DNA from: a virus
Virus record (IMG/VR): IMGVR_UViG_3300030000_000014
Length of the DNA: 52,366 nt
Reading direction: 5' to 3' (one strand)
Part shown: positions 4,325 through 52,090 of the stretch, piece after piece
How positions within the stretch are numbered: the first letter of the stretch is position 1
Layout: every line of letters begins with the position of its first letter
Made by a program: the position numbers and the translations under genes
The notes under the pieces: model-generated
Told to the model about the DNA's origin: nothing
The model's input: only the letters and a program-made list of their open reading frames with translations
The model's database searches: none

Positions 4325-4777
4325 ATGAAGACACTATATTTCAAAAAAGAGAACGGAGAAATTAAGGAAGAAGAACAGCTATTCAAGCAATTGAAGCAGT
4401 CATTCCTTAGTCTTAAAAATGGTGATTATGAGATAGTTCATAAGCTATTCAAGAAGAACCGTTCTAACGATCAAAATGCTTTAATGTGGTTGTGGTTCAC
4501 ATGCTTAGAAGACGAAACAGGACAAGACAAGCAAGACATTCACGATTATTATTGCAAGCTATTCTTAAGGCGTGAAGTAGTAATCAACAACAAGCGTGAA
4601 GTAGTAGTTTCCGGCACAAAAAATCTGAAAACTGATGTAATGGCTAACTTCCTCACTAAAGTACAAGCAGATGCAGCAAGTGAGTTTGGTTGTCAGTTAC
4701 CTACACGTGAAGACCTGCATTTCGAGGAATTCAGGAGACAATACGAACGGTTTAATTCTCATAACGATGGCAGATAA
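4325..4777 (+). CDS. ninB: NinB/Orf-like recombination mediator
   Basis: RSNDQNALMWLWFTCLEDE resembles lambda Orf RSLDQNRKLWACLGDVS. Similar length (150 aa). Confidence 0.5.
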   Translation: MKTLYFKKENGEIKEEEQLFKQLKQSFLSLKNGDYEIVHKLFKKNRSNDQNALMWLWFTCLEDETGQDKQDIHDYYCKLFLRREVVINNKREVVVSGTKNLKTDVMANFLTKVQADAASEFGCQLPTREDLHFEEFRRQYERFNSHNDGR

Positions 4778-5591
4778 TAAGTCAGGGTTTAAATTCTACA
4801 ATGTAGATACAGACCGGTATCAGGACATGAAAATAAAACGGCTAAAGAAGAAGTATAGCTGTAATGGAATTGCTGTCTACGACTACATACTTTGTGAGGT
4901 TTACAGGGTTCGTGGTTGCTTTACAGAGTGGGATGATAACTTCTTGTTTGACGTAGCAGATTACTTTTCGATAGAAGAACAATTGGTTACTGAAATAGTG
5001 AATTTCTGTTGCAATGTAGGTCTTTTCGATAAGATTGTTTTTGCCAAATTATCAATCATTACTTCGCGAACAATTCAAGAAAGATTTGTCGACATGAGTA
5101 GACGAGCCAAACGAACAGGCGTAAATATTCCCGAAGAAATACACATTATTCGGGAAGTATCGCCAAAAGTTCGGGAAGAAAGTGGAAATACTCAGGAACT
5201 TTCAGACAGAGTAGAGAAGAGTAAAGAAGAAGAGAAAAAAGAAGAGGAAAGTAGAGGAAATTACTCACCCAAATATTTTGTCGAAATTGACGAGTTAGAA
5301 CAATTCCTGAAAGATGATACAGAGTGGTGCGATATTGTTTGCTCACAGAATGGATTTAGTCCTGATCAGATAAATGAGTTTCATGGTTTCATAGAAAAAT
5401 TTGTATCAAATCTCCGTCAGAAAAAAGTACCCGGCAAGTCCCCGAAAGAAGCTTATGATCACTTTGTGAATTGGTTTATAAAGCAACTCCAAAATTCAAA
5501 ACAGAATGGAACTGAACAGAAAAGAAATAGCACAAGTGACAGGCAAAGTCAATTGCTTGCAGAAGTTGCCGAAGTTATCGCCACAAATTGA
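4767..5591 (+). CDS. Replication initiator-like protein with DUF4373 (Lin1244/Lin1753-like, DnaD-related) N-terminal domain
   Basis: Start chosen at ATG 4767 (MADNKSGFKFYNVDTDRYQD...), overlapping the upstream stop. The N-terminal domain pattern is typical of phage replication proteins. A Glu/Lys-rich linker follows. Confidence 0.6.
   Translation: MADNKSGFKFYNVDTDRYQDMKIKRLKKKYSCNGIAVYDYILCEVYRVRGCFTEWDDNFLFDVADYFSIEEQLVTEIVNFCCNVGLFDKIVFAKLSIITSRTIQERFVDMSRRAKRTGVNIPEEIHIIREVSPKVREESGNTQELSDRVEKSKEEEKKEEESRGNYSPKYFVEIDELEQFLKDDTEWCDIVCSQNGFSPDQINEFHGFIEKFVSNLRQKKVPGKSPKEAYDHFVNWFIKQLQNSKQNGTEQKRNSTSDRQSQLLAEVAEVIATN
5124..5260 (+). repeat. TTCSSGAA boxes plus GAGTA/GA-rich iteron tract, copy 1 (inside the replication gene)
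   Basis: aatattCCCGAAgaaatacacattaTTCGGGAAg...aagTTCGGGAAg...ggaactttcagacaGAGTAGAGAAGAGTAAAGAAGAAGAG. About 100 nt align with 26564-26669. Confidence 0.75.
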
Positions 5592-27208: not shown

Positions 27209-27426
27209 ACGATAGTATTTGGGCTGTAATAGCAGGGGTTTCTAAGGGTTACACATTGAATTTTGATTATGTCTTGTATGAACTAAGTTACGCAAATGTA
27301 GTCATGTACAGTTCAGTTCTTCCAAGCAACGAAGAAAGCAAAGAACCTGATTTTGACAGTTCTAAAGATGCTAACGACCCGAATAATTTTAATGATGATA
27401 CTGACGAAATAATTGTACGAGCATGA
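26708..27426 (+). CDS. Tail assembly chaperone -1 frameshift product (gpGT-like)
   Basis: The -1 frame is open over 27112-27426 (…AVIAGVSKGYTLNFDYVLYELSYANVVMYSS…) and ends overlapping the tape measure ATG. Slippery candidates are T TTT TTC (27139-27145) and A AAA AGG (27190-27196). Confidence 0.55.
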
Positions 27427-30400: not shown

Positions 30401-31499
30401 AAACGAACTCCTAGAAAATGCAACAAATATTTTTGGAACTGATGCTTATGCAAAGGCCATTGGCTATGCACAGGTTGCTGATAAAATTAGTGAAGCTCTT
30501 TATAGCAAAGAATCAACTGTTGTTCAAAAACGTGGAACTGGAATTTTTGTATCTCTTGTCCCTGAAATAAAGGAGTATAAAGGTGCAATTGCAGAACTGA
30601 ACAATGCAAAAGTACAAACCGGTTCGCACAAAACGGGGCTGTTTGGTTGGGGAGGAGAGAAAGCAGATTATTCAGGCTTATTGGCAACATATCCTAAACT
30701 GATTGATGGTCAAGGAAAGCTAAACCAAGAACTGGCTCAATCGATTTTGGATAACAAAACGCTTGATGAAACGAGTAAAAAGGCTCTGCAATCTGCTTTG
30801 GATTATTCAAAAGAATATGATGATGCTTTACAATCATTAAGTGACTATCTAACTACCGTTTTTGGTTCATTAGGTACTGACATGATGACTGCAATAACAG
30901 ACAATCTTAACGATACTCAATCAGCGATTGATAAGTTTGGTGAATCTGCTGCAAAGTCTATTGAAAAGCTAATGACTGATATAGCTTACTCAATGTTTTT
31001 GGCTGATAACTTTACGAAGTTATCGAATGACGTAAAAGCTGTTATTGCAGATAATTCACTAACTCCCGAACAGCAAGCAGCAAAGGATATTGCCTTATTA
31101 GGTGATTTTTATTCAAATGTTGGATCAGATGTTGAAGCAGCAAATAAGTTTCTTTCAGATAGTAAGGATGCAGCAGCAGCAGCCGGTTTTGACCTTTGGA
31201 ATAAAACTACACGTGAAGCCACGACAAAGGGTTTTGCATCTATGAGTCAAGATACTGGTACTGAATTGAACGGTAGATTTACTCACATGGACGGTACCAT
31301 GACAGAAGTATCAACCAATACTTTAAGAATTGCAGACAGTATGGATTTATTGAAAGCAAATTCAAGCAGTATTCTTGAAAATGTCATTGAAATAAAAGGT
31401 CATACGTCAAGACTTGAAGCCATTGAAAATGGGATAGGTTCAATGAAAATGAGTCTTGATTCAATTAATACTAAGGGAATAAATATCAAAGTAGGATGA
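27423..31499 (+). CDS. Tail tape measure protein
   Basis: 1358 aa. N-terminal TMP-type domain (ALGMIADFAATTPFQLDEVTGSFIKLTNQGF), hydrophobic segment and long coiled coils. Confidence 0.85.
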   Translation: MSEKWWKSGIDNSGLRKDADEASNIVNGLSNKVKAQSAQMDSSFSTVGKSLAAIGGTAAIAMMGKDILDTTAKFETFGIVLRNSLGDLEGDKALGMIADFAATTPFQLDEVTGSFIKLTNQGFTPTRQEMVKLGDFASFTKKSFDQLTEAVLDAQTGEFERLKEFGVKASQSGDKVTFTFRDQKTTVDKTNAAIRGYILSLGDLEGVAGSNAKIAAAMTGIISNLEDKMAAAANKIGTDNKTLIYGILNGTTAIVDNYEMVGKVLMGLVATYGAYRAAVLVATAVSKGYTIAQNLEFVSLLLVEKAQLAVNASMLTNPYVAAAVAVTALVAGLAIYLSTLEDVNQTEISKKTIQDKVSKQYDEQKSKIDMLVGVLNNEKVALSERKNALGELQKIIPNYHASLDNEGKLINNNKSAIDEYLKSLEKEIRLQAAKDELIELYKKKRLQEKTAKERDASAASAEAAANTTIIGESQLGGSARGLMAGQTRGYANAAKKELTDTVTAIKAIESELTAEISTTTTKIVAPEKNKDYWEKQKKNAQDALALMGEAKKGSKEWNEQVRLSNQATEKLKLWDTTGKVATEVNKKAQETADANLKIKNNAAKAALEQKQTEIDNQNAVIATQEDGFAKQKSVIELNHKQRLLDIDKQAQELVEKEQEAEKLAWEKNGKKGVFTPKTTDSSNLSAESKKTLSDSKLVVDITYNADNDNLLKELSDKYALFDEKRREIDRKYSDDGVAIKAMFSGEELDVKLKELDSRHKEAIKGVNSDESDSLLKTSDLFIQLFGDASMKSVNSIRAISAESQALFDYLNNTSVGDLTDKFGFSKEQLTSLKLSKEQMKGMKDQITTLNGTADKGELVFGEFGANIKKVFDGFGKGKKTVGETQKLMEGLQGTLQTVSSFAGQAQGLLNAMSTEEGDAASSAAKSIGAVMDVANSTMQGFQQGGVVGAAVAFTMSVATKIFEAEKAHQAALKKLQDEKTAQQKEYNDLLMKQNELLENATNIFGTDAYAKAIGYAQVADKISEALYSKESTVVQKRGTGIFVSLVPEIKEYKGAIAELNNAKVQTGSHKTGLFGWGGEKADYSGLLATYPKLIDGQGKLNQELAQSILDNKTLDETSKKALQSALDYSKEYDDALQSLSDYLTTVFGSLGTDMMTAITDNLNDTQSAIDKFGESAAKSIEKLMTDIAYSMFLADNFTKLSNDVKAVIADNSLTPEQQAAKDIALLGDFYSNVGSDVEAANKFLSDSKDAAAAAGFDLWNKTTREATTKGFASMSQDTGTELNGRFTHMDGTMTEVSTNTLRIADSMDLLKANSSSILENVIEIKGHTSRLEAIENGIGSMKMSLDSINTKGINIKVG

Positions 31500-32329
31500 T
31501 AGCAACTTTATACATAGATGGACATGATGTATTTGTCGACTACGGCATTTTCATTACAGAAGGTGGGTATAATGGTTTGTTGTCATTTCCTAGTCTAAAA
31601 GAACCCGACAAAACCGATTGGGCTGAGCGTGATGGAATTGAAGTTGACTTGCTTAACCCGGTGCTTGATGCAAAGAAATTCTCTGTATCATTTGCTGTAA
31701 AATCAAACGGTGACTTCAATGGATTAATGGCATTGATATTCAATCAAGCCTATCACACATTCAATTTTGCAGAAGTAGGATTAATTAAGTCGTTACGTGT
31801 AGTTTCTTGTTCCGATTTCAAAGGAACGAATAATTCATTAAGGTTTTTTAGTTTAGAGTTCTCAGATGACTTTCCGTTGAGTGCATACAGTTATCAGGTG
31901 CCTGTTTCTACGCAAATTTCACAGCGAGGTTACGAACTGGACAGTAATGATTTTTCAAAATATGGAGTTGCAATACTGGAAGGATCGGATGCTGAAATTC
32001 TTAAGCCAAACGCTGTAAAACCAAACTTGACAGTTAATGTAAAGTATGTATCAGGTCAAACGTATTCGAATGATGGTGTTGTTTTTCAGTCGAAAGATGT
32101 CAAATTGAAATGCTTATTACTAGCTACTAACATTTCAGAGTTTTGGCGTAATTACAACGCTTTGCTGTTTGATTTATCAAAGTCCGGACTAAGAACTATC
32201 TACTATTCAGGACTAGGTTATAAGTGTCACTATAAGTCTTCTTCTGTTTCAAGATTTGATATGAAAGGCCGTATATGGTGTGAGTTTGAAATTAGTTTAG
32301 TGTTCACAAAATTAGGAGTTCAAAGATGA
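31496..32329 (+). CDS. Distal tail protein (Dit) candidate
   Basis: 277 aa directly after the tape measure gene. Confidence 0.5.
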   Translation: MIATLYIDGHDVFVDYGIFITEGGYNGLLSFPSLKEPDKTDWAERDGIEVDLLNPVLDAKKFSVSFAVKSNGDFNGLMALIFNQAYHTFNFAEVGLIKSLRVVSCSDFKGTNNSLRFFSLEFSDDFPLSAYSYQVPVSTQISQRGYELDSNDFSKYGVAILEGSDAEILKPNAVKPNLTVNVKYVSGQTYSNDGVVFQSKDVKLKCLLLATNISEFWRNYNALLFDLSKSGLRTIYYSGLGYKCHYKSSSVSRFDMKGRIWCEFEISLVFTKLGVQR

Positions 32330-35300
32330 AAATTTTCAATAATAACATAGAGATAATCGATATAATCGTAAAGGATGAAAGTTACCGTTATCGTACTATA
32401 ATGGGCGAAAACGCATTGACGTTGACGTTCTCACTTTCAACATTTATTGAAATTCCACGTGGTGCATACGCTGATTTTGAAGGAGAACGCTACACGCTTT
32501 TGAAACCTCAGGTTTTCACAGAAATCAGTTCGAAAGAGTTTGAATATACATTGATTTTAGAAAGTGCAAAAGCACTTCTAGGCCGGTACAAGTTCCGTGA
32601 TAGTTCATCAAAGAAATTGAAGTTCGCGAATACTGCTAAGGCAAGTGCACACCTGGCAATGTTGGTTTGGAACTTAAATCAACGTGATTCAGGGTGGAGT
32701 GTTGGCGAGTGTATTGATTCAACAGAAAAGGTATTGAATTTCAATCACACCTACTGCGATGAAGCGTTGAAGATGATAGCACAAAAATTCGATACCGAAT
32801 TTGAAGTTGTCGGGAAAGTTATTTCGCTTAAGAAAATCGAGTACAACAAAGCAAACCCTCTCCCACTTTCGTATGGTTTTGGGAATGGATTCAAGACTGG
32901 CATTAAGCGTGAAAACTTCGATAACTCAAAAGCTGTTGAAGTTCTTTTCGTGTCCGGGGGTGAAAAAAATATAAATGCTTCAACGTATGGATCAAGTGAA
33001 CTGTTGTTGCCAAAAAATCAGACCTTGGTTTATGAGGGAAGAACCTATATTTCTGACGAAAATGGTTATTCAATCAGAAGGGCCGATAAGGAATTATTTT
33101 CTCATATAGAAGATAGTACTGATTGTTCACACATTTATCCATCACGTATTGGTACCATTTCTAGCGTTGTAGTAGTTGATGCAGCTAAGAGTTTCTACGA
33201 TTTTATTGATACAAGCATTCCTGCAGGGCTAGACTATTCCGTTTGTTTGATGGATGGTGAGAAAATGACTGTTATTTTTCAGTCAGGAATACTTGAAGGT
33301 AAAGAGTTTGACGTAAACTATAGCCACTCAACTAGGAAGTTTGAAATTGTTCCTCAGGAAATTGATGGTGTTACAATGCCGAATGCTACATTTAAACCTA
33401 TTGTTGGTGATACTTATGCAGTTTTCGGAATTAGTTTGCCTGATGCTTATGTATGTGATAATGCAAGCAAAACAGGAAGTTCTTGGGACATGTTTCGTGA
33501 AGCAGCAAAATATTTCTTTGAGAACGAAGACCCACGTTATAGCTTCACAGGTGAACTTGATGGTGACTGGACAAAAACAGATTGGGTGAATATTGGTGGT
33601 AAAATAGTTCTTGGCGGTTATGTGAGCTTTACTAACGAAAAGTTTCAACAAACACCTTTGCTTATCAGGATTGTTGGCGTTAAAGACTACATAAACAACC
33701 CTCATACTCCTGTCGTTGAACTGTCAAATATTACTGTAGGTGGTAATAGTTTGAGTAGCGAACTTGGACGAATTGATCAAAACGAAGTTGTTGTTGAAGA
33801 ATCAAAGAAAGATGCGATCCGTTTTGCAAAGCGTGGTTTCCGAGATGCAAAGCAAACAACAGAAATGCTTCAATCGGCATTGTTGAATTTCAGCAGCTCC
33901 ATTTCTCCGCTAACTGTTCAGACTATGCAGGTGATTGCCGGTGATGAAACACTGCAATTTGAATTTGTTTCTAGTTCAACCTCTACCACTTCAGTATCTC
34001 ATAACGAAAACTACAATCCGGCTACGAAACAATTCAGTTCTGAAGCAGGTATTTTGCAGCATAAAACGCTTGGAGTAACTACGCTTTCAAGTTCGCACGC
34101 TGCATCAGAGTTGAAATGGTGGAATATGACCGCATTTGTTTCGGCTGTATTGGATGATAGTAGTAAGTCTTACTATTTGTATGCTAAAGTCAGTAAAACG
34201 GATAATACAGGTGTTTCCTTACTTTCCGAGAATGCAATAGCCCTCGAAAGCGTTGCAGGGTACTATCACCTTTTAATGGGAATTCTCAACTCCGAGAATG
34301 ATGGTGACAGATCGTACAGTCAGTTTTATGGTTATTCAGAACTTACGCCTGCACGAATGACAGTGAAGAAAGTCGTCAGTCCAAGCGGAAATACTTTTTT
34401 CGATTTGGAAAACGAGGTTATCCAAGGAAATATCAAATTTCAGTCGGGGGTTACTGTTGAGACTGGTATTAGTAACGCCAAATCAGAAGCAATTCAAACG
34501 GCTGCCGGAGATGCTACAGCTAAGGTCAATAATTTGCAGATTGGTGGTGAAAACCTTGTTGATGATAGCAGTTATGAAAATGGGCGATCAATTCAAACGT
34601 ATGGAGCAACACCATCTGGAACTGTAAGTGTAGATACATCTATATTTTTTGATGGAAGTAAATCTATGAAGCATATATTCAGTAGAAGTCAATCAGATGA
34701 GCCTTGTGGAATATATAGCATTATGTCGCAATATGATTTTTTAGACAAAATAAAAGGAAAACAGATTGTTCATTCAATATATGTCAAAGCATCAGGGTCG
34801 GCAATCGGTCGAACTATAGTACCATATTTATATTTTGGGGCTACCGATAAATACGGAGATAATTTCACACTTGATGGCAGCTGGCAGCAAATATGGATGA
34901 CAGCGATTGTTCCGACCAACTCGACAGTGTTCTTTTCTTATATTTTTGGAAATTTTACTTCAGGTGACATAATTAATGTAGATTGTGTTTTTGTAGGATT
35001 TGGAAATAAGGTGACAGATTGGAAATTGTCAAAAAAAGATATAGATGCATTTACAATAGCGAAAGCAAATGCAGCGGCAGAATTAGCTTATGCAAATGCA
35101 CAATCGTATGTGAATGCTATAAAAACAGACCTGCAAAGTCAAATTGATGGAAATATAACTTCATGGTTTTATGACTACGAACCAACAACATCGAATATTC
35201 CTGCTTCAAATTGGAACCCTGATTCTGTAAAAGATATTCATTTAGGTGATTTATTTTATTGGACTTCAAAAGGATGGGCTTATCGTTATATGAAATCAGG

Positions 35301-37686
35301 CAGCGTCTATTCCTGGACTAAAATATCCGATACCGATGTAACTAAAGCGTTAAATGATGCTGCAACGGCTCAAACTATTGCCAATGGTAAGCGCACAACA
35401 TTCGCAGTACAACCAACTACACCTTATTTGGTCGGTGATTTATGGCTGAACAGTGGTGATTTATTTAGTTGTAATGTAGCTCGTTCAACAGGTACTTTTA
35501 TTGCAAGTGATTGGTCAAAAGGGGTAAAATACACCGATGATACCGTTGCAAATCAAGCTGTAACAGCTGCTCAAAATGCTCAAACAACAGCTACTAATGC
35601 GGCAAATTCGGCAACAACGGCAAATTCATTACTTGCTGACATAGCTAATGACAATAAGTTGACAGCTTCTGAAAAACAGCAAACTAAAACCGAATGGGAT
35701 TCAATCGTATCTGAAAAAACGAAAAATGATACTCAAGCAGATGCTTTTTCGGTTTCAAGAACTGCATACGGTACGGCATATACTGCATTGAGTAACTACA
35801 TTACTGCGTTGCTAGCTGATTTGACTACCACAAGCGACATAGTAGGAACCACTTTTAGAACTAATTTTAAAGCGTACTATGATGCAAGAATTGATTTGCT
35901 AAATTCTATTGCTATAAAGTCAAAAACATTAGCAGATGCAGCACAATCTCAGGCTAATACTGCAAATGCGAACGCATCGACAGCTCAAAGTACTGCAAAT
36001 TTAGCTCAAACTAATTTGAATAATTTGCAGATAGGCGGTAGAAATTATTTTTCAAATAGTGAAATAAAATCTACGATTGGGTGGGACGCTTATAATTCTT
36101 CATTGTCAATAGTTGATAGTTCGTTAAGAGTATTAGGGAGCAATAGCCATGTTGGATTTCTAGCAACTTACACGCAGGCGATTGATGCGTTTAGAGAGGT
36201 CACAATTTCTTTTTATGCAAAAAACAATAAATCAAATCAAATTTCAATAGATTCATGGATTAATGGTAACGACAGCTTAAATCTAGGTACAGTAATTGGA
36301 AATAGCGGATGGGTTAAATTGATAAAGACATTTGTCCCAAAATACTATCAAGTAAACCAATTAAGCTCTTCTATGCTGTATGTAATTTCTCATGGAGATA
36401 GTGATTTTCAAGTAAAAAATATTAAAATTGAGTACGGGAATAAAGCAACAGATTGGACAGAAGCCCCCGAAGATGATTACGTAAAGAAAGCTCTTCAATC
36501 CAATACAGATATTAATGGCGGTTTATTCAGTACAACATTGATTCAAGTACGAGATACAGATAATGTTGTTAAGGGTGGAATGTCAGGCGTACAAAATGAT
36601 AATGTTGGCATTTGGACAGGTGGAACGTATGCGGATGCAATCGAGGGTATAGCGAAAAATATATTAAATAAAAATGGGAATTTCCGACTAGGTGGTGGAT
36701 TGATTGATTTCGATGCAGCTACACAAATAATGCTGATTAGCGCACTTATTAGAACTGCTGTATCGGGTGATAGGTTAGAAATAAGTAACTCCAATAACTC
36801 TATAACTATTTATGATTATGCTGGGTTAGAGAAAGTAAAAATATCTCCCAAAACAGTATCGCCACGTGGTGATATTGGAGGTTCTACAACAGTTACTACA
36901 ACTACCTATGCAGCGCACTCTAATACGATAGATGAAGATGGTACTGCTAACATTGGGAGTTCTGAAACAATAACTCTTGACGCAACTAAATTCTTTACCA
37001 TAGTAACGCCTGCAGTCAACTTCTCACTTTCAGCAAGTGGAGACTACGACGGTATTAATAAAATTCACTATACAGGTGATGCAAGCGTTCGTGTTAGTCT
37101 ATTTGATGTATCAAAAGGAGTATCTGTTTGGGAAAGTAACGAAAGCGTTTCATCAAGTAATTCATCCGTATCTGAGGATAGTGGCACTATCGGAGCAAAA
37201 ACACTTACCGGGATGAAAGGGAGCGTTTACCGTATTGATGTTACGATTAGTATTTCACACGAAGGTGCAGGAACCGGATTGGCAAGTGCTTCCATTTCGG
37301 CAGGGCAAACGCTTACCGGAACTATTGTAAATACTATTTCTGAAATAGGGCTGAATGGGTTTAATTTCATAAAATCAGCTACAGAATGGTTACACCTGGG
37401 AGATGATGACTTTTCAAGACGTGGAGCAACTGATATACCGGCAGGATTGGGAGGAGGAGGTTTTTCAAGTGGTGGTGGACTTGCATCTTCTTGGGGTAAA
37501 TTTCCACCAACAGGTTGTGGTGGAGCTACAACAAAAACAATAACACATGGTATTGGAGATACTGATTACGCCATTATAGTAACGATGACATCTAATAATA
37601 CATTTTATGTAACTGGTAAAACAGCATCCCAAATACAAGTTGTTACATCGGGTTCAGCTGATTTTATATTTGTTCGTACTAAATAA
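32326..37686 (+). CDS. Tail-associated / receptor-binding fibre protein (Tal-like N-terminus, two CBM-like modules, Ala/Thr/Asn-rich helical linkers)
   Basis: 1786 aa. Position after Dit. Repeated NNLQIGG...GNK(V/A)TDW modules and WFYDYEPT...GDLFYW-type fibre motifs. Confidence 0.7.
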   Translation: MKIFNNNIEIIDIIVKDESYRYRTIMGENALTLTFSLSTFIEIPRGAYADFEGERYTLLKPQVFTEISSKEFEYTLILESAKALLGRYKFRDSSSKKLKFANTAKASAHLAMLVWNLNQRDSGWSVGECIDSTEKVLNFNHTYCDEALKMIAQKFDTEFEVVGKVISLKKIEYNKANPLPLSYGFGNGFKTGIKRENFDNSKAVEVLFVSGGEKNINASTYGSSELLLPKNQTLVYEGRTYISDENGYSIRRADKELFSHIEDSTDCSHIYPSRIGTISSVVVVDAAKSFYDFIDTSIPAGLDYSVCLMDGEKMTVIFQSGILEGKEFDVNYSHSTRKFEIVPQEIDGVTMPNATFKPIVGDTYAVFGISLPDAYVCDNASKTGSSWDMFREAAKYFFENEDPRYSFTGELDGDWTKTDWVNIGGKIVLGGYVSFTNEKFQQTPLLIRIVGVKDYINNPHTPVVELSNITVGGNSLSSELGRIDQNEVVVEESKKDAIRFAKRGFRDAKQTTEMLQSALLNFSSSISPLTVQTMQVIAGDETLQFEFVSSSTSTTSVSHNENYNPATKQFSSEAGILQHKTLGVTTLSSSHAASELKWWNMTAFVSAVLDDSSKSYYLYAKVSKTDNTGVSLLSENAIALESVAGYYHLLMGILNSENDGDRSYSQFYGYSELTPARMTVKKVVSPSGNTFFDLENEVIQGNIKFQSGVTVETGISNAKSEAIQTAAGDATAKVNNLQIGGENLVDDSSYENGRSIQTYGATPSGTVSVDTSIFFDGSKSMKHIFSRSQSDEPCGIYSIMSQYDFLDKIKGKQIVHSIYVKASGSAIGRTIVPYLYFGATDKYGDNFTLDGSWQQIWMTAIVPTNSTVFFSYIFGNFTSGDIINVDCVFVGFGNKVTDWKLSKKDIDAFTIAKANAAAELAYANAQSYVNAIKTDLQSQIDGNITSWFYDYEPTTSNIPASNWNPDSVKDIHLGDLFYWTSKGWAYRYMKSGSVYSWTKISDTDVTKALNDAATAQTIANGKRTTFAVQPTTPYLVGDLWLNSGDLFSCNVARSTGTFIASDWSKGVKYTDDTVANQAVTAAQNAQTTATNAANSATTANSLLADIANDNKLTASEKQQTKTEWDSIVSEKTKNDTQADAFSVSRTAYGTAYTALSNYITALLADLTTTSDIVGTTFRTNFKAYYDARIDLLNSIAIKSKTLADAAQSQANTANANASTAQSTANLAQTNLNNLQIGGRNYFSNSEIKSTIGWDAYNSSLSIVDSSLRVLGSNSHVGFLATYTQAIDAFREVTISFYAKNNKSNQISIDSWINGNDSLNLGTVIGNSGWVKLIKTFVPKYYQVNQLSSSMLYVISHGDSDFQVKNIKIEYGNKATDWTEAPEDDYVKKALQSNTDINGGLFSTTLIQVRDTDNVVKGGMSGVQNDNVGIWTGGTYADAIEGIAKNILNKNGNFRLGGGLIDFDAATQIMLISALIRTAVSGDRLEISNSNNSITIYDYAGLEKVKISPKTVSPRGDIGGSTTVTTTTYAAHSNTIDEDGTANIGSSETITLDATKFFTIVTPAVNFSLSASGDYDGINKIHYTGDASVRVSLFDVSKGVSVWESNESVSSSNSSVSEDSGTIGAKTLTGMKGSVYRIDVTISISHEGAGTGLASASISAGQTLTGTIVNTISEIGLNGFNFIKSATEWLHLGDDDFSRRGATDIPAGLGGGGFSSGGGLASSWGKFPPTGCGGATTKTITHGIGDTDYAIIVTMTSNNTFYVTGKTASQIQVVTSGSADFIFVRTK

Positions 37687-37737: not shown

Positions 37738-38313
37738 TTATTGTAAATTTTGTGCCTTTAGTGTCTTGTATTCTGCCCCTGTAATTGGAATGAAAGTAAA
37801 TGCTTCGTTAAACGTCTTTATCATTAAAGCTTCATCTTTATTTTCGTAAGCTTGCTTTATGATTATTTGAGCCGACCGTATTGTTGAGTTCGGAATATAA
37901 CCAAGAGTATCACGAGGTGCACCAGCGGGGGCATGTAGGTTAAACTTAATTAAAATACAATCAGCTGATTCTATAAAGTCTGGCACATAATTACCGTCCT
38001 GATTGATTATGTCGACTCCATACATTTTTAAGCACGGTGTACTTGAAACAGTATCTCGTTGATTCGACTCAAAGACTCGTTCCCATTTAAGGTTGTTGAA
38101 ATTATATTGAATAATTGTAGTTTGCTTTACTATATCCAATGCGCTCAAATGTGTATCTGTAACTTTTACAAAAGCGGGTGCTTTTGATGCTCCATAAGCG
38201 GGTTTAATGCTAATCATAGCATTTGGATCAAGTTTCAAAATATTAGGCTCATCTTTTGAACCGCATGATGCGAAAGCAATTGAAATTAGGGTGATGATAA
38301 TTAGTTTTTTCAT
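37738..38313 (-). CDS. Lipoprotein (moron)
   Basis: MKKLIIITLISIAFASCGSKDE has a signal peptide plus lipobox Cys. It is the only minus-strand gene in the structural/lysis region. Confidence 0.7.
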   Translation of the reverse strand: MKKLIIITLISIAFASCGSKDEPNILKLDPNAMISIKPAYGASKAPAFVKVTDTHLSALDIVKQTTIIQYNFNNLKWERVFESNQRDTVSSTPCLKMYGVDIINQDGNYVPDFIESADCILIKFNLHAPAGAPRDTLGYIPNSTIRSAQIIIKQAYENKDEALMIKTFNEAFTFIPITGAEYKTLKAQNLQ

Positions 38314-38525: not shown

Positions 38526-39005
38526 ATGAATGATTTATTCTATCAATTGTATGATTTCTTGAAGAACGCTATTGTAATGATAGTCACGACATTATTCACA
38601 ATTTACATGCAACTTGAAGATGTTTACATCCTGATTTTCTTTGCTTTTGTGGCAAACATAGCAGCAGGAATTTATACTGATGTAAACGTAAATAATAAGC
38701 CATTCAAAATTGACAAGGCATTCGAAGCATTTAAGCATTTTGGTTTTTATGTCTTTTTGGTGTATTTCATTTATAGTACAGGAGTAAGGACAAAGGACGA
38801 ATACATTCAAGTGCTTGGAGTAAAGTGGACTACGCTGATTGTAATTTATTTCTACATAACAAACATTCTAAGGAATGGAACGCTGATATGGCCTGACAAT
38901 AAGACAATATCATTTCTGTACTTGGTTTTCTCAACTCAGATTTTCGACCGATTAAAGAGTGCATTAGGTTTTAAAGCTAACAATAATAAAGACAATGAAT
39001 TATGA
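38526..39005 (+). CDS. Holin-like membrane protein
   Basis: 159 aa with about 4 hydrophobic segments. Overlaps the start of the amidase gene. Confidence 0.45.
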   Translation: MNDLFYQLYDFLKNAIVMIVTTLFTIYMQLEDVYILIFFAFVANIAAGIYTDVNVNNKPFKIDKAFEAFKHFGFYVFLVYFIYSTGVRTKDEYIQVLGVKWTTLIVIYFYITNILRNGTLIWPDNKTISFLYLVFSTQIFDRLKSALGFKANNNKDNEL

Positions 39006-39601
39006 GAATTTTAATTGACAATGGTCATGGTATTGAAACACCTGGCAAGCGTTCGCCTGTATGGCCGGACAAGTCACAGCTACTTGAATACAAGTATGCA
39101 CGTGAGATTGCTCAACTTGTAGCAGCAAAGCTTAAGAAATTAGGACTTGTTGTTGATTTGATTGTTCCCGAAGAGAATGATATTCCACTTACTGAACGTT
39201 GCAAAAGAGTAAACAAAATTGCTTCAATCGTTGGAGCAAAGAACTGCTTGCTTGTCTCAATTCATGCAAATGCGAGTGACACGAATGCGGAAGCTCGTGG
39301 TTGGGAAGTTCACACGTTCACTGGTCAAAGCATTTCTGATGTTTATGCTACAGTTTTTTGGAAAGAAGCAGAAGCGATTTTGAAACAAGAAACAAAAATG
39401 CGTGGCGATTGGTCGGATAAGGACCCGGACTATGACAGCAATTTTGCTATGTTGCGTGACACGGTTTGTCCTTCTGTTTTGACAGAGAACTTATTTATGA
39501 CCAACGACCAGGATTGTAAGTTTCTGTTGTCTGCAGCAGGTAAGAAAGCCGTTGTTGATCTGCATGTAAATGCAATTGTAAAAATAGCTAACTTGTCATG
39601 A
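39002..39601 (+). CDS. N-acetylmuramoyl-L-alanine amidase (Amidase_3-type endolysin)
   Basis: ILIDNGHGIETPGKRSP...LVSIHANAS...WEVH...E..F pattern. Confidence 0.8.
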   Translation: MRILIDNGHGIETPGKRSPVWPDKSQLLEYKYAREIAQLVAAKLKKLGLVVDLIVPEENDIPLTERCKRVNKIASIVGAKNCLLVSIHANASDTNAEARGWEVHTFTGQSISDVYATVFWKEAEAILKQETKMRGDWSDKDPDYDSNFAMLRDTVCPSVLTENLFMTNDQDCKFLLSAAGKKAVVDLHVNAIVKIANLS

Positions 39602-41301: not shown

Positions 41302-42213
41302 ATGGAAACAAATTATTTATCACATTTACAGGAATCAGCTTACCGGGCATTTTATTGGACTTCATTCAGTCCTGATGTTAGAGGTAAACAGTGTATTGAC
41401 GAACATGAATCACAGCTGAGTGATGACATTAAATCTATCCCAAGTTCGGAGCATGAAAGATACATCGCAAAATATGTAGAACTATTCTCTAAATGGTTGA
41501 GTGCTCATTCAAGGTGTGCAAGTTCAGCAATAACAGGTGGATCAGGGTTCAATGTTAGAAGAGCTGAGAAAGCAAACAACAGTGAGCGTAACGCTTATAA
41601 AAACTTTGACGAGTGGAGAACCAATGCAAAGAAATCTATTGAAAAACGTATCGAGCAAAATAAGCCAGAAGCACAAAAGAAATCAGAAGCATGGCAGCGA
41701 TTAGAAAAAGATATTTTGCATTCTGCAGCAGTAATTCACGGTATAAACAAAGGGCTTGAAAGGGGCTGTAGTAAAGCTCTTTTTGTCAGTTCAATTTATC
41801 AAAAGACTGAAACATTCGCTAAGAAAGGGGACTTTGAAACTGTTCAGCTAGCAATTAATTGTATTCGTAACTTCAACGAAACAATGTCTGTAGTAATTAC
41901 CGAAAGACACAAGTTTTTCAAGTTGGCTGAAAAGGCCGAAGCAAAGAAAGAAAGTATTGAGGAACGTTCACAAATGGAAAATCAAGAGCTTTTGATAATT
42001 GGCGGTAAAGTTATCTACAATTACGAAATTGACAGATTGCAACTTGAATTTGACGAAAAGCCCTCCTATAGTATTATTCAAGAATTAAAAAGTCATGCGT
42101 TCAAATGGGCTCCGTCCACCGGAGTTTGGCAAAGACAATTGACTGGGAATGCGATTTATTCGACTAAGCTATTTTTGAAGAGTAATAATTTATTTATATC
42201 TAAATCAGAATGA
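41302..42213 (+). CDS. DUF3560-like protein
   Basis: C-terminal LQLEFDEKPSYSIIQELKSHAFKWAPSTGVWQRQLT resembles the DUF3560 signature. AAGTAGCAGTATG start context. Confidence 0.4.
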   Translation: METNYLSHLQESAYRAFYWTSFSPDVRGKQCIDEHESQLSDDIKSIPSSEHERYIAKYVELFSKWLSAHSRCASSAITGGSGFNVRRAEKANNSERNAYKNFDEWRTNAKKSIEKRIEQNKPEAQKKSEAWQRLEKDILHSAAVIHGINKGLERGCSKALFVSSIYQKTETFAKKGDFETVQLAINCIRNFNETMSVVITERHKFFKLAEKAEAKKESIEERSQMENQELLIIGGKVIYNYEIDRLQLEFDEKPSYSIIQELKSHAFKWAPSTGVWQRQLTGNAIYSTKLFLKSNNLFISKSE

Positions 42214-42217
42214 TATT

Positions 42218-44032
42218 ATGAATGAAGATATAAAATTGATTTACGTTGATTTATTTTGTGGAGCAGGTGGAACTTCCACAGGAGTTGAAAGTGCAAAAGT
42301 AAGAAAAGAACAATGTGCCAAGGTAATCGCTTGTGTCAATCACGATAAAAATGCGATTGCTTCGCATGAAGAAAACCACCCTGATGCGCTTCACTTCACC
42401 GAGGATATAAGAACACTCGACCTATCAAAGCTTATTGCACATGTTCAGTTTATGCGCATTATGTACCCAAATGCAAAGCTTGTTCTTTGGGCTTCGTTAG
42501 AGTGCACAAACTTCAGTAAGGCAAAAGGTGGACAGTCGAGAGATGCAGACAGTAGAACGCTTGCAGAACATTTATTCAGGTACATAGAAGCTCTTAATCC
42601 TGATTACGTTCATATTGAGAACGTAGAAGAATTTATGAGTTGGGGTGAGTTGGATGATAATGGAAAACCAGTTAGTAGAAATAATGGAAAAGATTATATC
42701 CGATGGATGAAGCAAGTTTGCTCTTATGGATATGATTCAGATTTCAGAATTTTGAACTCAGCAGATTTTGGAGCATATACTTCACGCAAGCGATTGTTTA
42801 TTCAATTCGCAAAATACGGTTTACCTATCAACTGGCCTGAACCTACACATTGCAAAGGTGGATCGGTTGGAATGTTTGATTTCAAAAAATGGAAGCCAGT
42901 AAAAGAAGTACTCGACTTCACGGATGAAGGTGTGTCAATTTTCACACGAAAGAAAGATTTATCCGAAAAAACGCTAGAACGGATTCATGCGGGACTGATC
43001 AAGTTTGTTGCAGGTGGAAAAGACAAATGGATTTTGAAATACAATTCCACTAATGGGAAAACAGGGAAACATAATCCACCATCTGTAGATGATCCTTGTC
43101 CAGTAGTTAGTACACAAGGAAGATTGGGAATTGTAAAGTGTGATTTTCTATCAATATACAATTCAGGTAATCCGGATCATAGAAATACTTCAATAAATGA
43201 TCCTTGTGGAGTAGTTACAACGAATAACCGTTTTGCAAAAGTTCAATGTGATTTTTTATCAGCTTATTATGGAAATGGTGACAATGTTAGTTCTGTGAAT
43301 AATCCAAGTCCAACCGTAACGACAAAAGACAGATTAGCTTTAGTTTCTCCACGATTCATTGATCAACAATTTGGACAGTCAAAGCCTGCATCAATTGAAA
43401 AACCATGCGGTGCATTAACTGCAAATCCAAAGTACAACCTGGTAACATGTAATCGATTTATTGTAAATCAGTATTCAGGAGGTGGTCAACATTCAGACGT
43501 AAATAATCCGTGTCCTGCTGTTTTATCAACTCCAAAACAAAATCTAGTTACCTTGAAACCGTGGATAATGAATACCAACTTTAGCAATATTGGCAGCTCG
43601 ATTGATGAACCATCCAAAGTAATTACAGCTAATCGTAAATGGCATTACCTGATGAACCCGCAATTTGGTAACCAGGTTCGCTCGGTTGATGATCCATGTT
43701 TCACTTTGATTGCTAGAATGGACAAAATGCCCCCTTATTTCATAGTTGCAGAAGATGGTAAAATGCAAATTCGAATTGAGAAAGATGATTCTGAATTTAC
43801 CGTAAAAATCAAAGAATTCATGTCGATTTACGGAATAGTTGACATTAAAATGCGAATGCTGAAAATTCCTGAACTCAAAATGATAATGGGATTCCCAAAG
43901 GATTACAAGCTTATCGGAACGCAGGCAGAGCAAAAGAAATATATAGGTAATGCAGTAGAGGTAACGATGGCAAGAGTCCTTTGTGAAGCAGTAGCAATTA
44001 AATTACATCAACAAACAAAAATAGCAGTATGA
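42218..44032 (+). CDS. DNA (cytosine-5)-methyltransferase with an expanded, internally repeated variable region
   Basis: Motif I DLFCGAGGTS. Motif IV variant SLECTNFS. Motif VI HIENV. Motif VIII TSRKRLF. Motif X GNAV. About 7 repeats of S(V/I)(D/N)xP(C/S)xx(V/L)(T/S)T lie between VIII and IX. Confidence 0.8.
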   Translation: MNEDIKLIYVDLFCGAGGTSTGVESAKVRKEQCAKVIACVNHDKNAIASHEENHPDALHFTEDIRTLDLSKLIAHVQFMRIMYPNAKLVLWASLECTNFSKAKGGQSRDADSRTLAEHLFRYIEALNPDYVHIENVEEFMSWGELDDNGKPVSRNNGKDYIRWMKQVCSYGYDSDFRILNSADFGAYTSRKRLFIQFAKYGLPINWPEPTHCKGGSVGMFDFKKWKPVKEVLDFTDEGVSIFTRKKDLSEKTLERIHAGLIKFVAGGKDKWILKYNSTNGKTGKHNPPSVDDPCPVVSTQGRLGIVKCDFLSIYNSGNPDHRNTSINDPCGVVTTNNRFAKVQCDFLSAYYGNGDNVSSVNNPSPTVTTKDRLALVSPRFIDQQFGQSKPASIEKPCGALTANPKYNLVTCNRFIVNQYSGGGQHSDVNNPCPAVLSTPKQNLVTLKPWIMNTNFSNIGSSIDEPSKVITANRKWHYLMNPQFGNQVRSVDDPCFTLIARMDKMPPYFIVAEDGKMQIRIEKDDSEFTVKIKEFMSIYGIVDIKMRMLKIPELKMIMGFPKDYKLIGTQAEQKKYIGNAVEVTMARVLCEAVAIKLHQQTKIAV

Positions 44033-44223
44033 AAGCAAAACAGAAACTTGAAGATTACCGTGTTACGGTACAACTACAAATTGTAGAAATTGAGGTAAAA
44101 GCTACATCAAAGACAGACGCAAAGAAAAAGGCACTTAGTCGCCTTTCAAGAAAAAACCCAGTTAAATTAATCCATACAGGATATCCATCAAACAGAAAAG
44201 AAATTTATATTGATAAATTATGA
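44029..44223 (+). CDS. Hypothetical small basic protein
   Basis: ORF track. Start overlaps the MTase stop. Confidence 0.45.
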   Translation: MKAKQKLEDYRVTVQLQIVEIEVKATSKTDAKKKALSRLSRKNPVKLIHTGYPSNRKEIYIDKL

Positions 44224-45554: not shown

Positions 45555-46877
45555 ATGGCAACAATAACATTAAGTCTATCAAAGAAATGTAATGAAATTG
45601 GAAAATCTGAAATAATGTTGAGATTTTCCATCAGTAAAGTTCAAAGATACAGAATAAAATCAAATTTATTCGTGTCGGCCAGTCGTTGGTCAAAGAAGAA
45701 TGAAATATCTATTCCTAAGATTGAAACAGAAGAACGCCAACAGCTCGTTTCATTAGCTTCTAGGTTCGATAATTTGAAAGTACATATATTCAAATGTTTT
45801 GAAAATTCAGACAAATCACAAGTTACTAAAGAATGGTTATTTGAATGTGTTGATAGATTTCATTTCCCTGAAAAATATATTGAAGTGATCCATGAGCCAA
45901 CGTTCTTTGATGTCGTGGACGAATTTCTATCAAAACGTAAATTATCTGCCGGAAGACTTCGTTCGATAAATGTTGTATTCCGATCATTGAAGCGTTACCA
46001 ATTGTATAAGCAAAAAACGAATGAATTGTTCATTTTAGATTTGAAAAATATAGATGAAAATATACTTGCTGACATTGAAAAATTTTTCAAGGATGAACCG
46101 ACTGTTTTTGCCAAGTACCCGGACATTTACAAAATTGTAAAAGAGTCAAGAAATCCTGAGCCAAGAGGACAGAACACGGTGAATGATATGTTGGTTAAGC
46201 TAAGAACGTTTTTTATTTGGTGCACCGATAATGAGAAGATTGATTCAAATCCGTTTAAGAAGTTCCCAGTATCAGAGTGTATTTATGGAACTCCGTACTA
46301 TATTAAGATAAGCGAAAGAAATCAGCTTTATGCAAAGAACATGAAAAAGTTACCATCGCTAGCGGTACAAAGAGATATTTTTGTGTTGCAGTGTCTTATT
46401 GGTTGCCGTGTTGGTGATTATTACAAAATGAAGATGTCAAACATAATGGATGGTGCCATTGAGTATATTGCCGGAAAAACAAAAGATGGTAATCCGATTA
46501 CTGTACGTGTTCCTCTCAATTCCATTGCGCTTGAAATTATCGAGCGTTATAAGGATGCTAATAGAGAATCACTAATGCCATTTATCAGCGAACAGAAATA
46601 CAATGAAGCTATCAAAGAAATGTTCACGTTTGCAAAACTGAATAGAATGGTAACGGTTCTTAATCCTACCACAAGGGAAGAGGAAAAAAAACCGTTAGAT
46701 AAAATAGCATCCTCGCACCTGGCACGAAGATCATTTATAGGAAATTTGTACAAGCAAGTCAAGGACCCAAATTTAGTAGGATCATTATCCGGCCATAAAG
46801 AAGGAAGCAAAGCATTTGCCCGTTACCGAGACATTGACGAAGAAATCAAGACTGACTTGGTGAATCTACTTCTGTAG
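45555..46877 (+). CDS. int: Tyrosine site-specific integrase (Bacteroidota phage/CTn type)
   Basis: LIGCRVGD (Arg), SHLARRSF (HxxR), LSGHKE (His), FARY (Tyr). N-terminal arm-binding and SAM-like domains. A TATCTTTG -7 box lies at 45528-45535. Confidence 0.85.
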   Translation: MATITLSLSKKCNEIGKSEIMLRFSISKVQRYRIKSNLFVSASRWSKKNEISIPKIETEERQQLVSLASRFDNLKVHIFKCFENSDKSQVTKEWLFECVDRFHFPEKYIEVIHEPTFFDVVDEFLSKRKLSAGRLRSINVVFRSLKRYQLYKQKTNELFILDLKNIDENILADIEKFFKDEPTVFAKYPDIYKIVKESRNPEPRGQNTVNDMLVKLRTFFIWCTDNEKIDSNPFKKFPVSECIYGTPYYIKISERNQLYAKNMKKLPSLAVQRDIFVLQCLIGCRVGDYYKMKMSNIMDGAIEYIAGKTKDGNPITVRVPLNSIALEIIERYKDANRESLMPFISEQKYNEAIKEMFTFAKLNRMVTVLNPTTREEEKKPLDKIASSHLARRSFIGNLYKQVKDPNLVGSLSGHKEGSKAFARYRDIDEEIKTDLVNLLL

Positions 46878-47386: not shown

Positions 47387-47397
47387 ATTCGTTGTTG

Positions 47398-47934: not shown

Positions 47935-47935
47935 G

Positions 47936-50158: not shown

Positions 50159-52090
50159 ATGAAAATAACACTAAAAAAGCTGACACTCCGAGGATTTAGA
50201 GGGGTCGTTTCAGAAAGTTTTGAGTTTATCGGTCGTGAAACTTTCATTCATGGTCGAAACAAAGCAGGAAAAACATCGCTATACGATGCTTTCCTATGGG
50301 TGAATTTCGGAAAGGACCACTTGGATCGTTCCGATTATCAATTGAAAACTCGTGATTTACTTGGTAACACGAAACCAAAAACAGAATGCGAAGTTGAAGA
50401 AGTTCTTGATGTAGATGGTAAGATTACTACACTCAGACGAGTGTACGGTGAAAATTGGGTAAAACCAAAAGGAGAAGCCGAAGAAGTATTCAAAGGAAAT
50501 ACAACGACCTATTATATCAATGATGTGGACGTACCAAAATCTGAGTACGATGCTTTTGTATTAGGTCTTTGTGGTGAAAAAGTTTTCAAGTCAATTACCA
50601 ACCCGCATTATTTCCCAAGTCTTAGTAAGGACGAACAGAGAGCTTTATTATTCAGCATGGCCGGAGAAATAACCAACGAATCGGTTGCAGCAACTAACAA
50701 AGCATTTCAAGAGTTATTGACTGAAATTACTGGTGTTTCGTTTGACTCTTTCCGTAAGGAATTGGCAGCCAAAAAACGCAGGATAAAAGAGGAGTTAGCC
50801 GGTATTGAACCGAGAATTGACGAGTTGAAAAGAACGATGCCCGAAATTCCCGATCTTGATGCAATCAACAAAGAATTGGAAGAAAAGAAAGGTAAAATTG
50901 AACTTGTCGAAATGTCAATTTCAGACATTGCTAAACAGTCCGAAAGCGTTCAGAAAGAACGGTTAGAATGGCAGGGTGAAATCAACAAGTTGGAGCTTGA
51001 AAACCAACAACTAGGCTTTGAAGAAACTCAAAAGCAATCGCAAGCAATTCAGGAAGTAAAACGTAAGATTGATGTCGTAAAATCAAGTAACCTTGAAGTA
51101 GAAAACAAAGAAGCTCAACGGAAACAGAAAGTAGTTTCTTTGAATAAAGAAAAGGACGAAAAGCTTGAAATTATTGCACAGTATCGCAAAGAATATCAGA
51201 ATATAAATGCTGAAACTCTAACATTTCCCGAAGGAGCTTTTGAATGTCCTACCTGCAAACGATTACTTGAACCGTCAGACATTGATGCAAAGCAAGCTGA
51301 ATTGGTAGCCAATTTCAACAACGAAAAGGCAAGACGGATTGAAGAAAATAAGAAGAAAGGTCTTGCGATTAAAACTCGATTGGATGAAATTGAGAAAGAA
51401 CTTGAACAGCTTGTTGTACCTGTTGAAGCTGAAAAGTTCACAGGCACAAAGTTGGATATTCTAAACGAAGAACTTGTAAAAGTATCACAGCCGATACCGT
51501 TAACCGAAAAGCAAAACGAAAACCAAGGAAAAATAAACTGGTTCCGTTCCAAGCTCAATGAAGAAGTAAATTTGCAAGGAAATCAACGCTTCATTGAAGA
51601 AAAGAACCAACTGCAAGGCGAGATTGATAAATTGAAAGAACGACTTGCATTGAAAGACGTTGTTGAAAATACGAATACCCGGATCAAGCAACTAGAAGGA
51701 CAATTCAAAACACTCAACCAGGAGTTGGCCCATCTTGAAAGAAAAGAATTTACGCTGAAAGAATTTGAATTTGCAAAGAATACTGAATACGAAGTTCGTA
51801 TCAATCAAATGTTCAAATATGTAAAATTCAAGTTATTTGCTCAGCAAGTAGATGGTCAGATTATCCCAACTTGTGAAGCTATGATTGATGGAGTTCTTTA
51901 CTCTACTTTGAACAATGCAGATCAATACAAATGCGGTTTGGATATTATCAATACCATTTCAGCCTATAACGATAAGTACGCACCTATATGGCTTGACAAC
52001 CGTGAGGGAGTAACTGAAATCCCTGAAATGACAGCACAAGTTATCAATTTGGTTGTAAATCCTGAGAAACAAAAACTTACTATCGTTTAG
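50159..52090 (+). CDS. Rad50/SbcC-like AAA ATPase with coiled coil and CxxC zinc hook
   Basis: N-terminal LRGFRG...HGRNKAGKTSLYDAFLWVNFG (Walker A). Long coiled coil with ECPTCKR at its centre. C-terminal IWLDNREG (Walker B/D-loop). Confidence 0.7.
   Translation: MKITLKKLTLRGFRGVVSESFEFIGRETFIHGRNKAGKTSLYDAFLWVNFGKDHLDRSDYQLKTRDLLGNTKPKTECEVEEVLDVDGKITTLRRVYGENWVKPKGEAEEVFKGNTTTYYINDVDVPKSEYDAFVLGLCGEKVFKSITNPHYFPSLSKDEQRALLFSMAGEITNESVAATNKAFQELLTEITGVSFDSFRKELAAKKRRIKEELAGIEPRIDELKRTMPEIPDLDAINKELEEKKGKIELVEMSISDIAKQSESVQKERLEWQGEINKLELENQQLGFEETQKQSQAIQEVKRKIDVVKSSNLEVENKEAQRKQKVVSLNKEKDEKLEIIAQYRKEYQNINAETLTFPEGAFECPTCKRLLEPSDIDAKQAELVANFNNEKARRIEENKKKGLAIKTRLDEIEKELEQLVVPVEAEKFTGTKLDILNEELVKVSQPIPLTEKQNENQGKINWFRSKLNEEVNLQGNQRFIEEKNQLQGEIDKLKERLALKDVVENTNTRIKQLEGQFKTLNQELAHLERKEFTLKEFEFAKNTEYEVRINQMFKYVKFKLFAQQVDGQIIPTCEAMIDGVLYSTLNNADQYKCGLDIINTISAYNDKYAPIWLDNREGVTEIPEMTAQVINLVVNPEKQKLTIV

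Follow-up and report, generated by a model that had tools for sequence, protein, structure and literature searches.

Does a phage methyltransferase with one catalytic domain read several DNA targets by means of a tandem array of small recognition elements? This question is raised by a gene at positions 42218..44032 (plus strand) of the IMG/VR virus record IMGVR_UViG_3300030000_000014, the whole stretch of which, 52,366 nt in length, was analysed here and is referred to as the window. The gene is complete and encodes a C5-cytosine DNA methyltransferase (C5-MTase) of 604 aa plus stop, in which seven tandem units of 28-36 aa (aa 289-518) are inserted between the conserved motifs VIII and IX. Judged from the sequence, a multispecific enzyme is plausible. 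Hereby, we give about an even chance to the explanation that the protein is an orphan C5-MTase which counters restriction and whose recognition array comprises several modules, used one at a time.

The assignment to the C5-MTases, made in a first-pass annotation of this locus, is borne out by profile matches, structural matches and intact motifs in canonical order. The Pfam profile PF00145 matches with E = 1.5e-29 (103.9 bits versus a cut-off of 22), covering an N-terminal part (aa 10-214) and a second part, and the score of TIGR00675 stays slightly below its cut-off (95.4 versus 100.65 bits) because the array splits the profile. Sequence matches in the PDB include DNMT1, M.HaeIII, M.HhaI and the prophage enzyme 3g7u, and the PDB chain alignments place motifs IX and X at approximately aa 540-592. 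A Foldseek search with the predicted model likewise returned M.HaeIII and M.HhaI with E = 1e-13 to 1e-11 and template modelling (TM) scores of 0.66-0.69 (target-normalised). All motifs considered, I, IV, VI, VIII, IX and X, are intact. Motif I (DLFCGAGG, aa 11-18, 42248..42271), which binds S-adenosylmethionine, retains the invariant residues D11, L12, F13, G15, G17 and G18. It is followed on the plus strand by motif IV (SLECTNFS, aa 93-100, 42494..42517) with the catalytic Cys96 (nt 42503-42505), by motif VI (IENV, aa 133-136, 42614..42625) and by motif VIII (TSRKRLF, aa 188-194, 42779..42799). Beyond the array, motif IX (MRMLKIPELKMIMGFPKDY, aa 545-563, with the core RMLKIPELKMIMGFP from aa 546) and motif X (KYIGNAVEV, aa 574-582, with GNAV at aa 577-580) together occupy 43850..43963. 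Motif IV is odd in that a Glu stands in the position of the canonical Pro ('PC' dipeptide) before Cys96. This Glu is kept in at least 90% of the Bacteroidota-phage family and is invariant in the alignment of 73 close homologues (A1) that also served for structure prediction; in the proteobacterial relatives motif IV reads S-P-D-C-x-H-F-S.

The span originally marked as repetitive, 43079-43750, corresponds to aa 288-511 of this open reading frame (ORF), and all seven repeat motifs quoted for it were found, starting at aa 289, 325, 359, 392, 427, 461 and 489. The size of about 220 aa that had been given for the variable region approximates the array (~230-250 aa); the whole variable region is larger and comprises ~350 aa (aa 195-544). 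Its first part (aa 200-270, 42815..43027, plus strand) is non-repeated, is modelled with moderate to high confidence and contains a helix at aa 250-264. Next comes a leading half-unit, WILKYNSTNGKTGKHNPP (aa 271-288, 43028..43081, plus strand); because it resembles the unit tails (F-L-x-x-Y-x-G...), we set the start of the array near nt 43028, so that the array including the half-unit extends from nt ~43028 to ~43771. Equivalents of the half-unit in relatives appear as partial matches (FLTSYYGN, FLCKHYSG) of a hidden Markov model (HMM) of the units.

The full units, all on the plus strand and here given with the lettered types to which clustering assigns them, are unit 1 (type F, SVDDPCPVVSTQGRLGIVKCDFLSIYNSGNPDHRNT, aa 289-324, 43082..43189), unit 2 (type I, SINDPCGVVTTNNRFAKVQCDFLSAYYGNGDNVS, aa 325-358, 43190..43291), unit 3 (type E, SVNNPSPTVTTKDRLALVSPRFIDQQFGQSKPA, aa 359-391, 43292..43390), unit 4 (type B, SIEKPCGALTANPKYNLVTCNRFIVNQYSGGGQHS, aa 392-426, 43391..43495), unit 5 (type B, a diverged duplicate, DVNNPCPAVLSTPKQNLVTLKPWIMNTNFSNIGS, aa 427-460, 43496..43597), unit 6 (type C, SIDEPSKVITANRKWHYLMNPQFGNQVR, aa 461-488, 43598..43681) and unit 7 (type D, SVDDPCFTLIARMDKMPPYFIVAEDGKMQI, aa 489-518, 43682..43771). 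Their lengths are 36, 34, 33, 35, 34, 28 and 30 aa. A linker (43772..43849, plus strand) with a confidently modelled helix at aa 526-538 leads from the array to motif IX. Every unit carries the core P-x-x-x-[VIL]-x-[STA], and in three units Val or Ala takes the place of the core Thr that precedes the hydrophobic residue (PCPVVST, PCGALTA, PCPAVLS). The consensus derived from 629 non-identical units is GSSIDEPCPTITTKDRLALVSPKFMNTYFGNSK.

To quantify the repeat, each unit was scored in a leave-one-out procedure against an HMM of the other six and compared with 2000 shuffles of itself. The real units score between 8.5 and 48.2 bits, the shuffle maxima lie at 5.9-11.7 bits, and in each case 0/2000 shuffles score as high as the real unit. 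Scanned in all six frames, the window yields significant matches of the unit HMM in this ORF only. At the DNA level Tandem Repeats Finder detected no tandem repeat, the repetition being visible in the protein alone, and the units are therefore old and diverged. Rapid slippage or phase variation of the array was considered and rejected, since a DNA tandem repeat was not found.

The proposal that the repeated unit equals the element which ordinary C5-MTases carry once, directly ahead of motif IX, agrees with the result for M.HaeIII, whose sequence was checked against PDB 1dct/3ubt. Here the unit HMM finds exactly one site, NEPAFTVQASGRQ at aa 232-244, with 0.4% of shuffles reaching the score. 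The surrounding segment (aa 222-249) holds R225, R227 and R243, reportedly the base-contacting residues in the HaeIII-DNA structure of Reinisch et al. (1995). When the C-terminal 144 aa of the window enzyme were searched against the PDB, motifs IX and X aligned and the target recognition domain (TRD) gave no alignment.

A likeness to the tandem TRDs of multispecific Bacillus phage enzymes had also been claimed, and it is seen again at the level of the cores: matches of the unit HMM fall on the T-[LVI] cores of M.SPRI, M.Rho11sI, M.H2I and M.SPBetaI, the four enzymes compared. For the core common to all four, EPAFTVNTIDRHGV, 0/500 shuffles reach the score; the corresponding fractions are 0.2-0.6% for SPTITTN/SPTLTTN, 2.8% for DGVSPTLTT and 4.6% for SPTLTT of SPbeta, and the third core of H2 (TLTTN) does not rise above its shuffles, 21% of which reach its score. 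By motif scan, T-[LVI] cores number two in SPbeta, in agreement with the two targets that this enzyme presumably has, and four each in rho11s and H2. The three cores counted in SPR agree with the 'triple sequence specificity' named in the title of the paper by Gunthert and Reiners. Locally, unit 3 matches GNG...SPTITT of M.SPRI, BLASTP pairing GNGDNVSSVNNPSPTVTT with GNGMNGNVYNSSGLSPTITT at E = 0.5, which alone is not significant. The functional register that this pairing suggests is the tail of unit n together with the head of unit n+1.

Further evidence for modularity comes from close family members. Clustering of 914 units from 121 proteins results in approximately nine main types. Their order, F-I-A-G-E-H-B-C-D, is conserved; single types may be absent and are occasionally duplicated. 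In this manner 36 different architectures arise among the 121 proteins, and that of the window enzyme, F-I-E-B-B-C-D, is found in two of them, namely the query and a homologue 99% identical to it. Types C and D are the most conserved and occur in 121/121 close family members; type D was moreover present in every relative examined, two-unit enzymes included. Between the window protein and its close homologues, indels measure 33-39 aa and comprise whole units, with one exception, a 24-aa deletion in homologue P0006. By these alignments, close homologues differ through the gain and loss of complete units.

Units of the same type are 57-73% identical between homologues (83% for C, 76% for D), units of different types 27%, and the catalytic halves 67-73%. 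Because the same-type units are thus conserved about as well as the catalytic halves, all types are under purifying selection and are not decaying spacers. Within the unit, columns 3, 4, 7, 16, 20, 24 and 25 form a shared scaffold and columns 6 and 21-23 vary freely. Columns 9, 12, 14-19 and 26-28 are type-specific, with an entropy of ~2.1-3.1 bits overall and of 0.2-1.0 bits within a type. Such a pattern near the T-[VIL] core is what would be expected of specificity determinants placed on a common scaffold.

The array is widespread. Full-length homologues were retrieved from phage records by tblastn, namely from Bacteroides phage BS-TP2 (62.6%), Porphyromonas phages (48%), Cellulophaga and Tenacibaculum phages (35-41%) and, at 26-30%, phages of Citrobacter, Aeromonas, Roseburia, Rhodobacter, Klebsiella, Pseudomonas and Burkholderia. 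True homologues that match phrog_116, with 27-63% identity along the entire protein, are for example BS-TP2 gp38, Porphyromonas phage 025a, Cellulophaga phi17:2 and phi4:1, Citrobacter phage phiNP Met, Aeromonas phage LPM4 and Rhodobacter phage RcapNL. The units occupy the same position in these relatives, with seven units in BS-TP2, four in the Porphyromonas phage, two in phi17:2 and ~6-8 in the proteobacterial and Roseburia phages; in the phage records the proteins are annotated simply as DNA methyltransferases, the array being unannotated. For the 120 closest database homologues, which have 5-10 units, protein length follows 356 + 35.4 x N (r = 0.92), and the Cellulophaga branch, with 1-8 units, shows a slope of 32 aa per unit. 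When the seven-unit profile was searched against 1.84 billion representative proteins (E<=1e-3), it matched at least 593 protein clusters at 50% identity. Among the best 150 of these 593 clusters, 116 are full-length with 3-11 units, always between the catalytic halves, and the rest resemble fragments. Some representatives carry extra sequence N-terminal of the array (P0166, 1213 aa; P0199, 966 aa and 11 units; P0235, 939 aa; P0156, 880 aa), and these long proteins may be fusions with other domains. As far as homology searches tell, the family spans the phages of Bacteroidota and extends, by way of remote relatives, to those of Proteobacteria and Firmicutes.

Of the 20 ORFs that were scanned, including the neighbours of the MTase gene, none was recognised as encoding a restriction endonuclease. 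In the explanation that we prefer, the target-recognition region of an orphan C5-MTase would have been expanded to an open-ended array, here of seven small modules. Each module would consist approximately of the tail of one unit and the head of the next (F-L-x-x-Y-x-G-N-x(5-8)-P-x-P-T-[VIL]-T-T-x(2-3)-R-L-x-L-V), and would combine a shared beta-strand scaffold with a conserved T-[VIL] core and type-specific residues beside this core. The single catalytic domain would work with one module at a time, as in the Bacillus phage enzymes, so that each functional module would direct methylation of its own short target and newly replicated phage DNA would simultaneously withstand several restriction systems of the host. 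The repertoire of targets would change over evolution by gain, loss and duplication of whole modules. Three points of this explanation are inferred, namely DNA binding by the modules, a different target sequence for different modules and a role against restriction.

Several observations weigh against this multi-module explanation. Literature searches returned no methylation data for the enzyme or any homologue. The likeness between the unit and known TRD cores is one of a short motif only: the core of M.HhaI (AITLSA) is too diverged and was missed by the unit HMM, the unit profile gave only chance matches among PDB sequences (mannose-binding protein, E ~0.06), and single units searched against Pfam yielded zero matches. 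The order of the unit types is fixed, the types never being shuffled, and the ubiquitous types C and D may together represent a fixed structural element instead of swappable specificity modules. Moreover, type-specific conservation would also arise from position-specific structural roles in one elongated domain. Structure prediction was carried out for the full protein in two AlphaFold2 runs, one with the 73 close homologues of alignment A1 and one with 149 sequences including relatives of the Cellulophaga branch with 2-8 units (A3). In both runs the catalytic parts are predicted as a two-lobed MTase fold at a predicted local distance difference test (pLDDT) score of 80-97, and the array reaches no confident fold (pLDDT ~25-53), short beta-hairpins being all that is predicted within the units. 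Independent modules with their docking geometry, and equally a single rigid repeat domain, thus receive no structural support from the AlphaFold2 models.

In the strongest rival explanation, the array is a single extended DNA-binding domain of variable length. Such a domain would give the enzyme a single specificity, short or relaxed, or would raise its affinity for phage DNA or its processivity on it. We consider this explanation unlikely, though it deserves serious attention. It would account naturally for the regular period of 28-36 aa, for the hydrophobic and basic scaffold columns 4, 7, 16, 20, 24 and 25 that the units share, for the fixed order of the types with invariant units C and D, and for an open-ended copy number of 2 to 11 as known from solenoid-like repeat proteins; the short beta-hairpins predicted in each unit would fit as well. 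AlphaFold2, however, usually models regular solenoids and propellers confidently, and the low pLDDT of the array therefore weighs slightly against a well-packed repeat fold. Strong type specificity of the positions flanking T-[VIL], conserved across phages, likewise speaks against this rival, and the equivalent element of M.HaeIII lies inside the segment that presumably holds the base-specific contacts. Finally, two-unit enzymes exist and are presumably active, so that the extra units would be dispensable for the basic function.

A further alternative, which we regard as clearly improbable, confines the working TRD to units C and D, perhaps together with B, and takes the upstream units for inactive or pseudo-TRDs or assigns them another role such as regulation or protein interaction. 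Apart from the universal presence and high conservation of both types in the 121 proteins, type D is retained even by the two-unit enzymes of Cellulophaga phages, and its sequence (PCFTLIARMDK) resembles the core P-A-F-T-V of M.HaeIII and of the H-TRD. A precedent may also exist, as Lange et al. in 1991 reportedly described pseudo-TRDs in the Bacillus phage group. Against this restriction to C and D stands the conservation of the upstream types, which with 57-73% identity compare with the catalytic halves (67-73%) and are thus under purifying selection; likewise, the variation in whole-unit number among close relatives is hard to explain without a selectable function. A last possibility, that an ordinary variable region merely shows a low-complexity or chance pattern, has nothing in its favour beyond the general sequence variability of TRDs; its probability is negligible, and it is refuted by the shuffling result obtained for every unit and by the recurrence of the units in hundreds of protein clusters.

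Considering the genomic context, the window is, by its gene content (integrase, RecT, endolysin, replication initiator), a temperate tailed phage. Its last 97 nt (52270-52366) are identical to its first 97 nt (1-97), and the phage genome is therefore complete at 52,269 bp, being either closed into a circle or redundant at its termini. The genome encodes RecT (804..1715), a replication initiator (4671..5591), a likely tape-measure protein (27423..31499) and a giant tail protein (32326..37686), the latter two named by size and position only, an endolysin (39002..39601), a tyrosine-integrase-like integrase on the plus strand (45555..46877), two minus-strand ORFs following the integrase (47398-48280) and an SbcC-like protein (50159..52090). 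The region 45555-48280 is probably the lysogeny switch. Sizeable genes on the minus strand are only the two ORFs at 47398-48280 and one at 37738..38313. Directly upstream of the MTase gene, an ORF of 303 aa with weak primase likeness (phrog_19458; 41302..42213) ends 4 nt before the MTase start, and downstream the ATG of a small ORF (44029..44223) overlaps the MTase stop (ATGA, 44029-44032). This tight packing suggests co-translation in a block of early or replication genes. A duplication was considered for the first and the last 303-aa ORFs and was dropped, one being RecT-like and the other weakly primase-like. A megablast search with 22 kb of the window against the phage collection found no near relative, and the host, suggested by protein neighbours only, would be sought among those of Bacteroides and Porphyromonas phages.

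The MTase gene itself is found in more than one setting. An 84% identical enzyme with six units (P0002; L012 6001-7713, a contig of JGI 3300028767) lies in an unrelated phage backbone, next to an SNF2/N6_N4-MTase fusion, a radical-SAM protein and a PAPS-reductase-like gene; the MTase gene therefore evidently moves between phages. This placement fits the rampant flow of methyltransferase genes among Bacteroides prophages (PMC10333322). A second methyltransferase gene adjoins the array C5-MTase in BS-TP2 (L011 4791-5285, with a match to phrog_954), in phiNP (L005 1-308, annotated as N6-adenine methyltransferase) and in a Porphyromonas phage (L010 1-280). In the window phage no second methyltransferase lies directly beside the array MTase gene.

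Regarding possible targets, the whole window is depleted in the palindromes GATC (observed/expected ratio 0.56, z -5.7), CGCG (0.37), GCGC (0.58), CTAG, GTAC and TTAA, and GGATCC and CATATG are absent. Not depleted are CCGG (1.23), GGCC (0.83, not significant), ACGT and TGCA. The depletion may reflect which host restriction sites are covered by methylation and which are not, and is too weak a signal for the assignment of targets.

In the open-access literature, multi-TRD C5-MTases were found described only for Bacillus phages and for the BssHII enzymes, and no description of the array family was found. While the principle of several TRDs in one C5-MTase is already known, the regular, statistically detectable repeat of 28-36 aa, the copy number of up to 11 and the limited set of unit types appear to be undescribed. 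Tentatively, and at rather less than an even chance, we therefore propose a very large undescribed family of phage C5-MTases with expandable arrays of 2-11 mini-TRDs of ~34 residues drawn from a limited set of types, each unit possibly with its own target. If each unit does have its own target, these enzymes, with seven targets in the present case, would exceed every known DNA methyltransferase in multispecificity and would embody a naturally modular code that leads from a short peptide module to a DNA motif. One small gene would then shield the phage against many restriction systems, and by gaining or losing units the phages of gut Bacteroidota would have a simple means of adjusting their host range in evolution. 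The family would also reopen the question, posed by the Bacillus phages in the 1980s-1990s, of how several TRDs share one catalytic centre, with hundreds of natural variants now to compare. A motif-specifying module of ~34 aa would also be attractive for engineered, targeted writers of 5-methylcytosine (m5C) and for m5C motif prediction, as PacBio-based surveys largely miss m5C. If the array is instead one domain of relaxed specificity, it would merely be an unusual TRD architecture in a common phage enzyme.

Compared with the ordinary enzymes M.HaeIII (target GGCC) and M.HhaI (target GCGC), both monospecific, the window enzyme has the same fold and motif order, but carries seven recognition elements plus a half-unit instead of one. 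Accordingly, the interval between motifs VIII and IX comprises ~350 aa here versus ~107 aa in M.HaeIII. M.BssHII and M.(phi)BssHII are multispecific enzymes of Bacillus stearothermophilus and its prophage. In M.(phi)BssHII the TRDs are described as lying at separated places in the enzyme, whereas the window enzyme has one contiguous array, by which description the two are set apart. Work on both enzymes is cited in PMC8936443. They are reported to be C5-MTases that possess more than one TRD and methylate several targets.

The closest parallel is provided by the multispecific enzymes of temperate Bacillus phages (M.SPRI, M.Phi3TI, M.Rho11sI, M.H2I and M.SPBetaI), which array several TRDs in one polypeptide (PMC12707154; PMC8936443) and have a presumed anti-restriction role (PMC12707154). 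Over the N-terminal catalytic half (195 aa) the window enzyme shares 25% identity with M.SPRI at a pairwise E = 3e-5, and no significant alignment was obtained between the two outside this half. By this measure the window enzyme is placed outside the SPbeta-group lineage of M.SPRI and its relatives and is an analogue, the likeness being one of architecture; with a lineage only 25% identical to M.SPRI, its array would have originated independently. Motif IV differs as well, reading S-L-E-C-T in the window enzyme and S-P-C-Q in the Bacillus enzymes, and the specificities of the latter have been shown by experiment, whereas the window enzyme is known from sequence alone. The interval between motifs VIII and IX, enlarged in both groups, measures ~216 aa in SPR and ~280 aa in rho11s and H2 versus ~350 aa here. 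The cores are spaced irregularly by 30-50 aa in the Bacillus enzymes and regularly by 28-36 aa in the window enzyme, and the Bacillus TRDs show, by inspection, little mutual likeness beyond the core, whereas the repeat of the window enzyme is detectable statistically. Common to both are a phage-encoded orphan C5-MTase with one catalytic domain and tandem elements with a P/S-x-T-[LVI]-[TSN]-[TAS] core, numbering two to four in the Bacillus enzymes versus seven here and up to 11 in relatives. In both, finally, the C-terminal-most element is shared among the members, as EPAFTVNT in the four Bacillus enzymes and as unit D in the window family.

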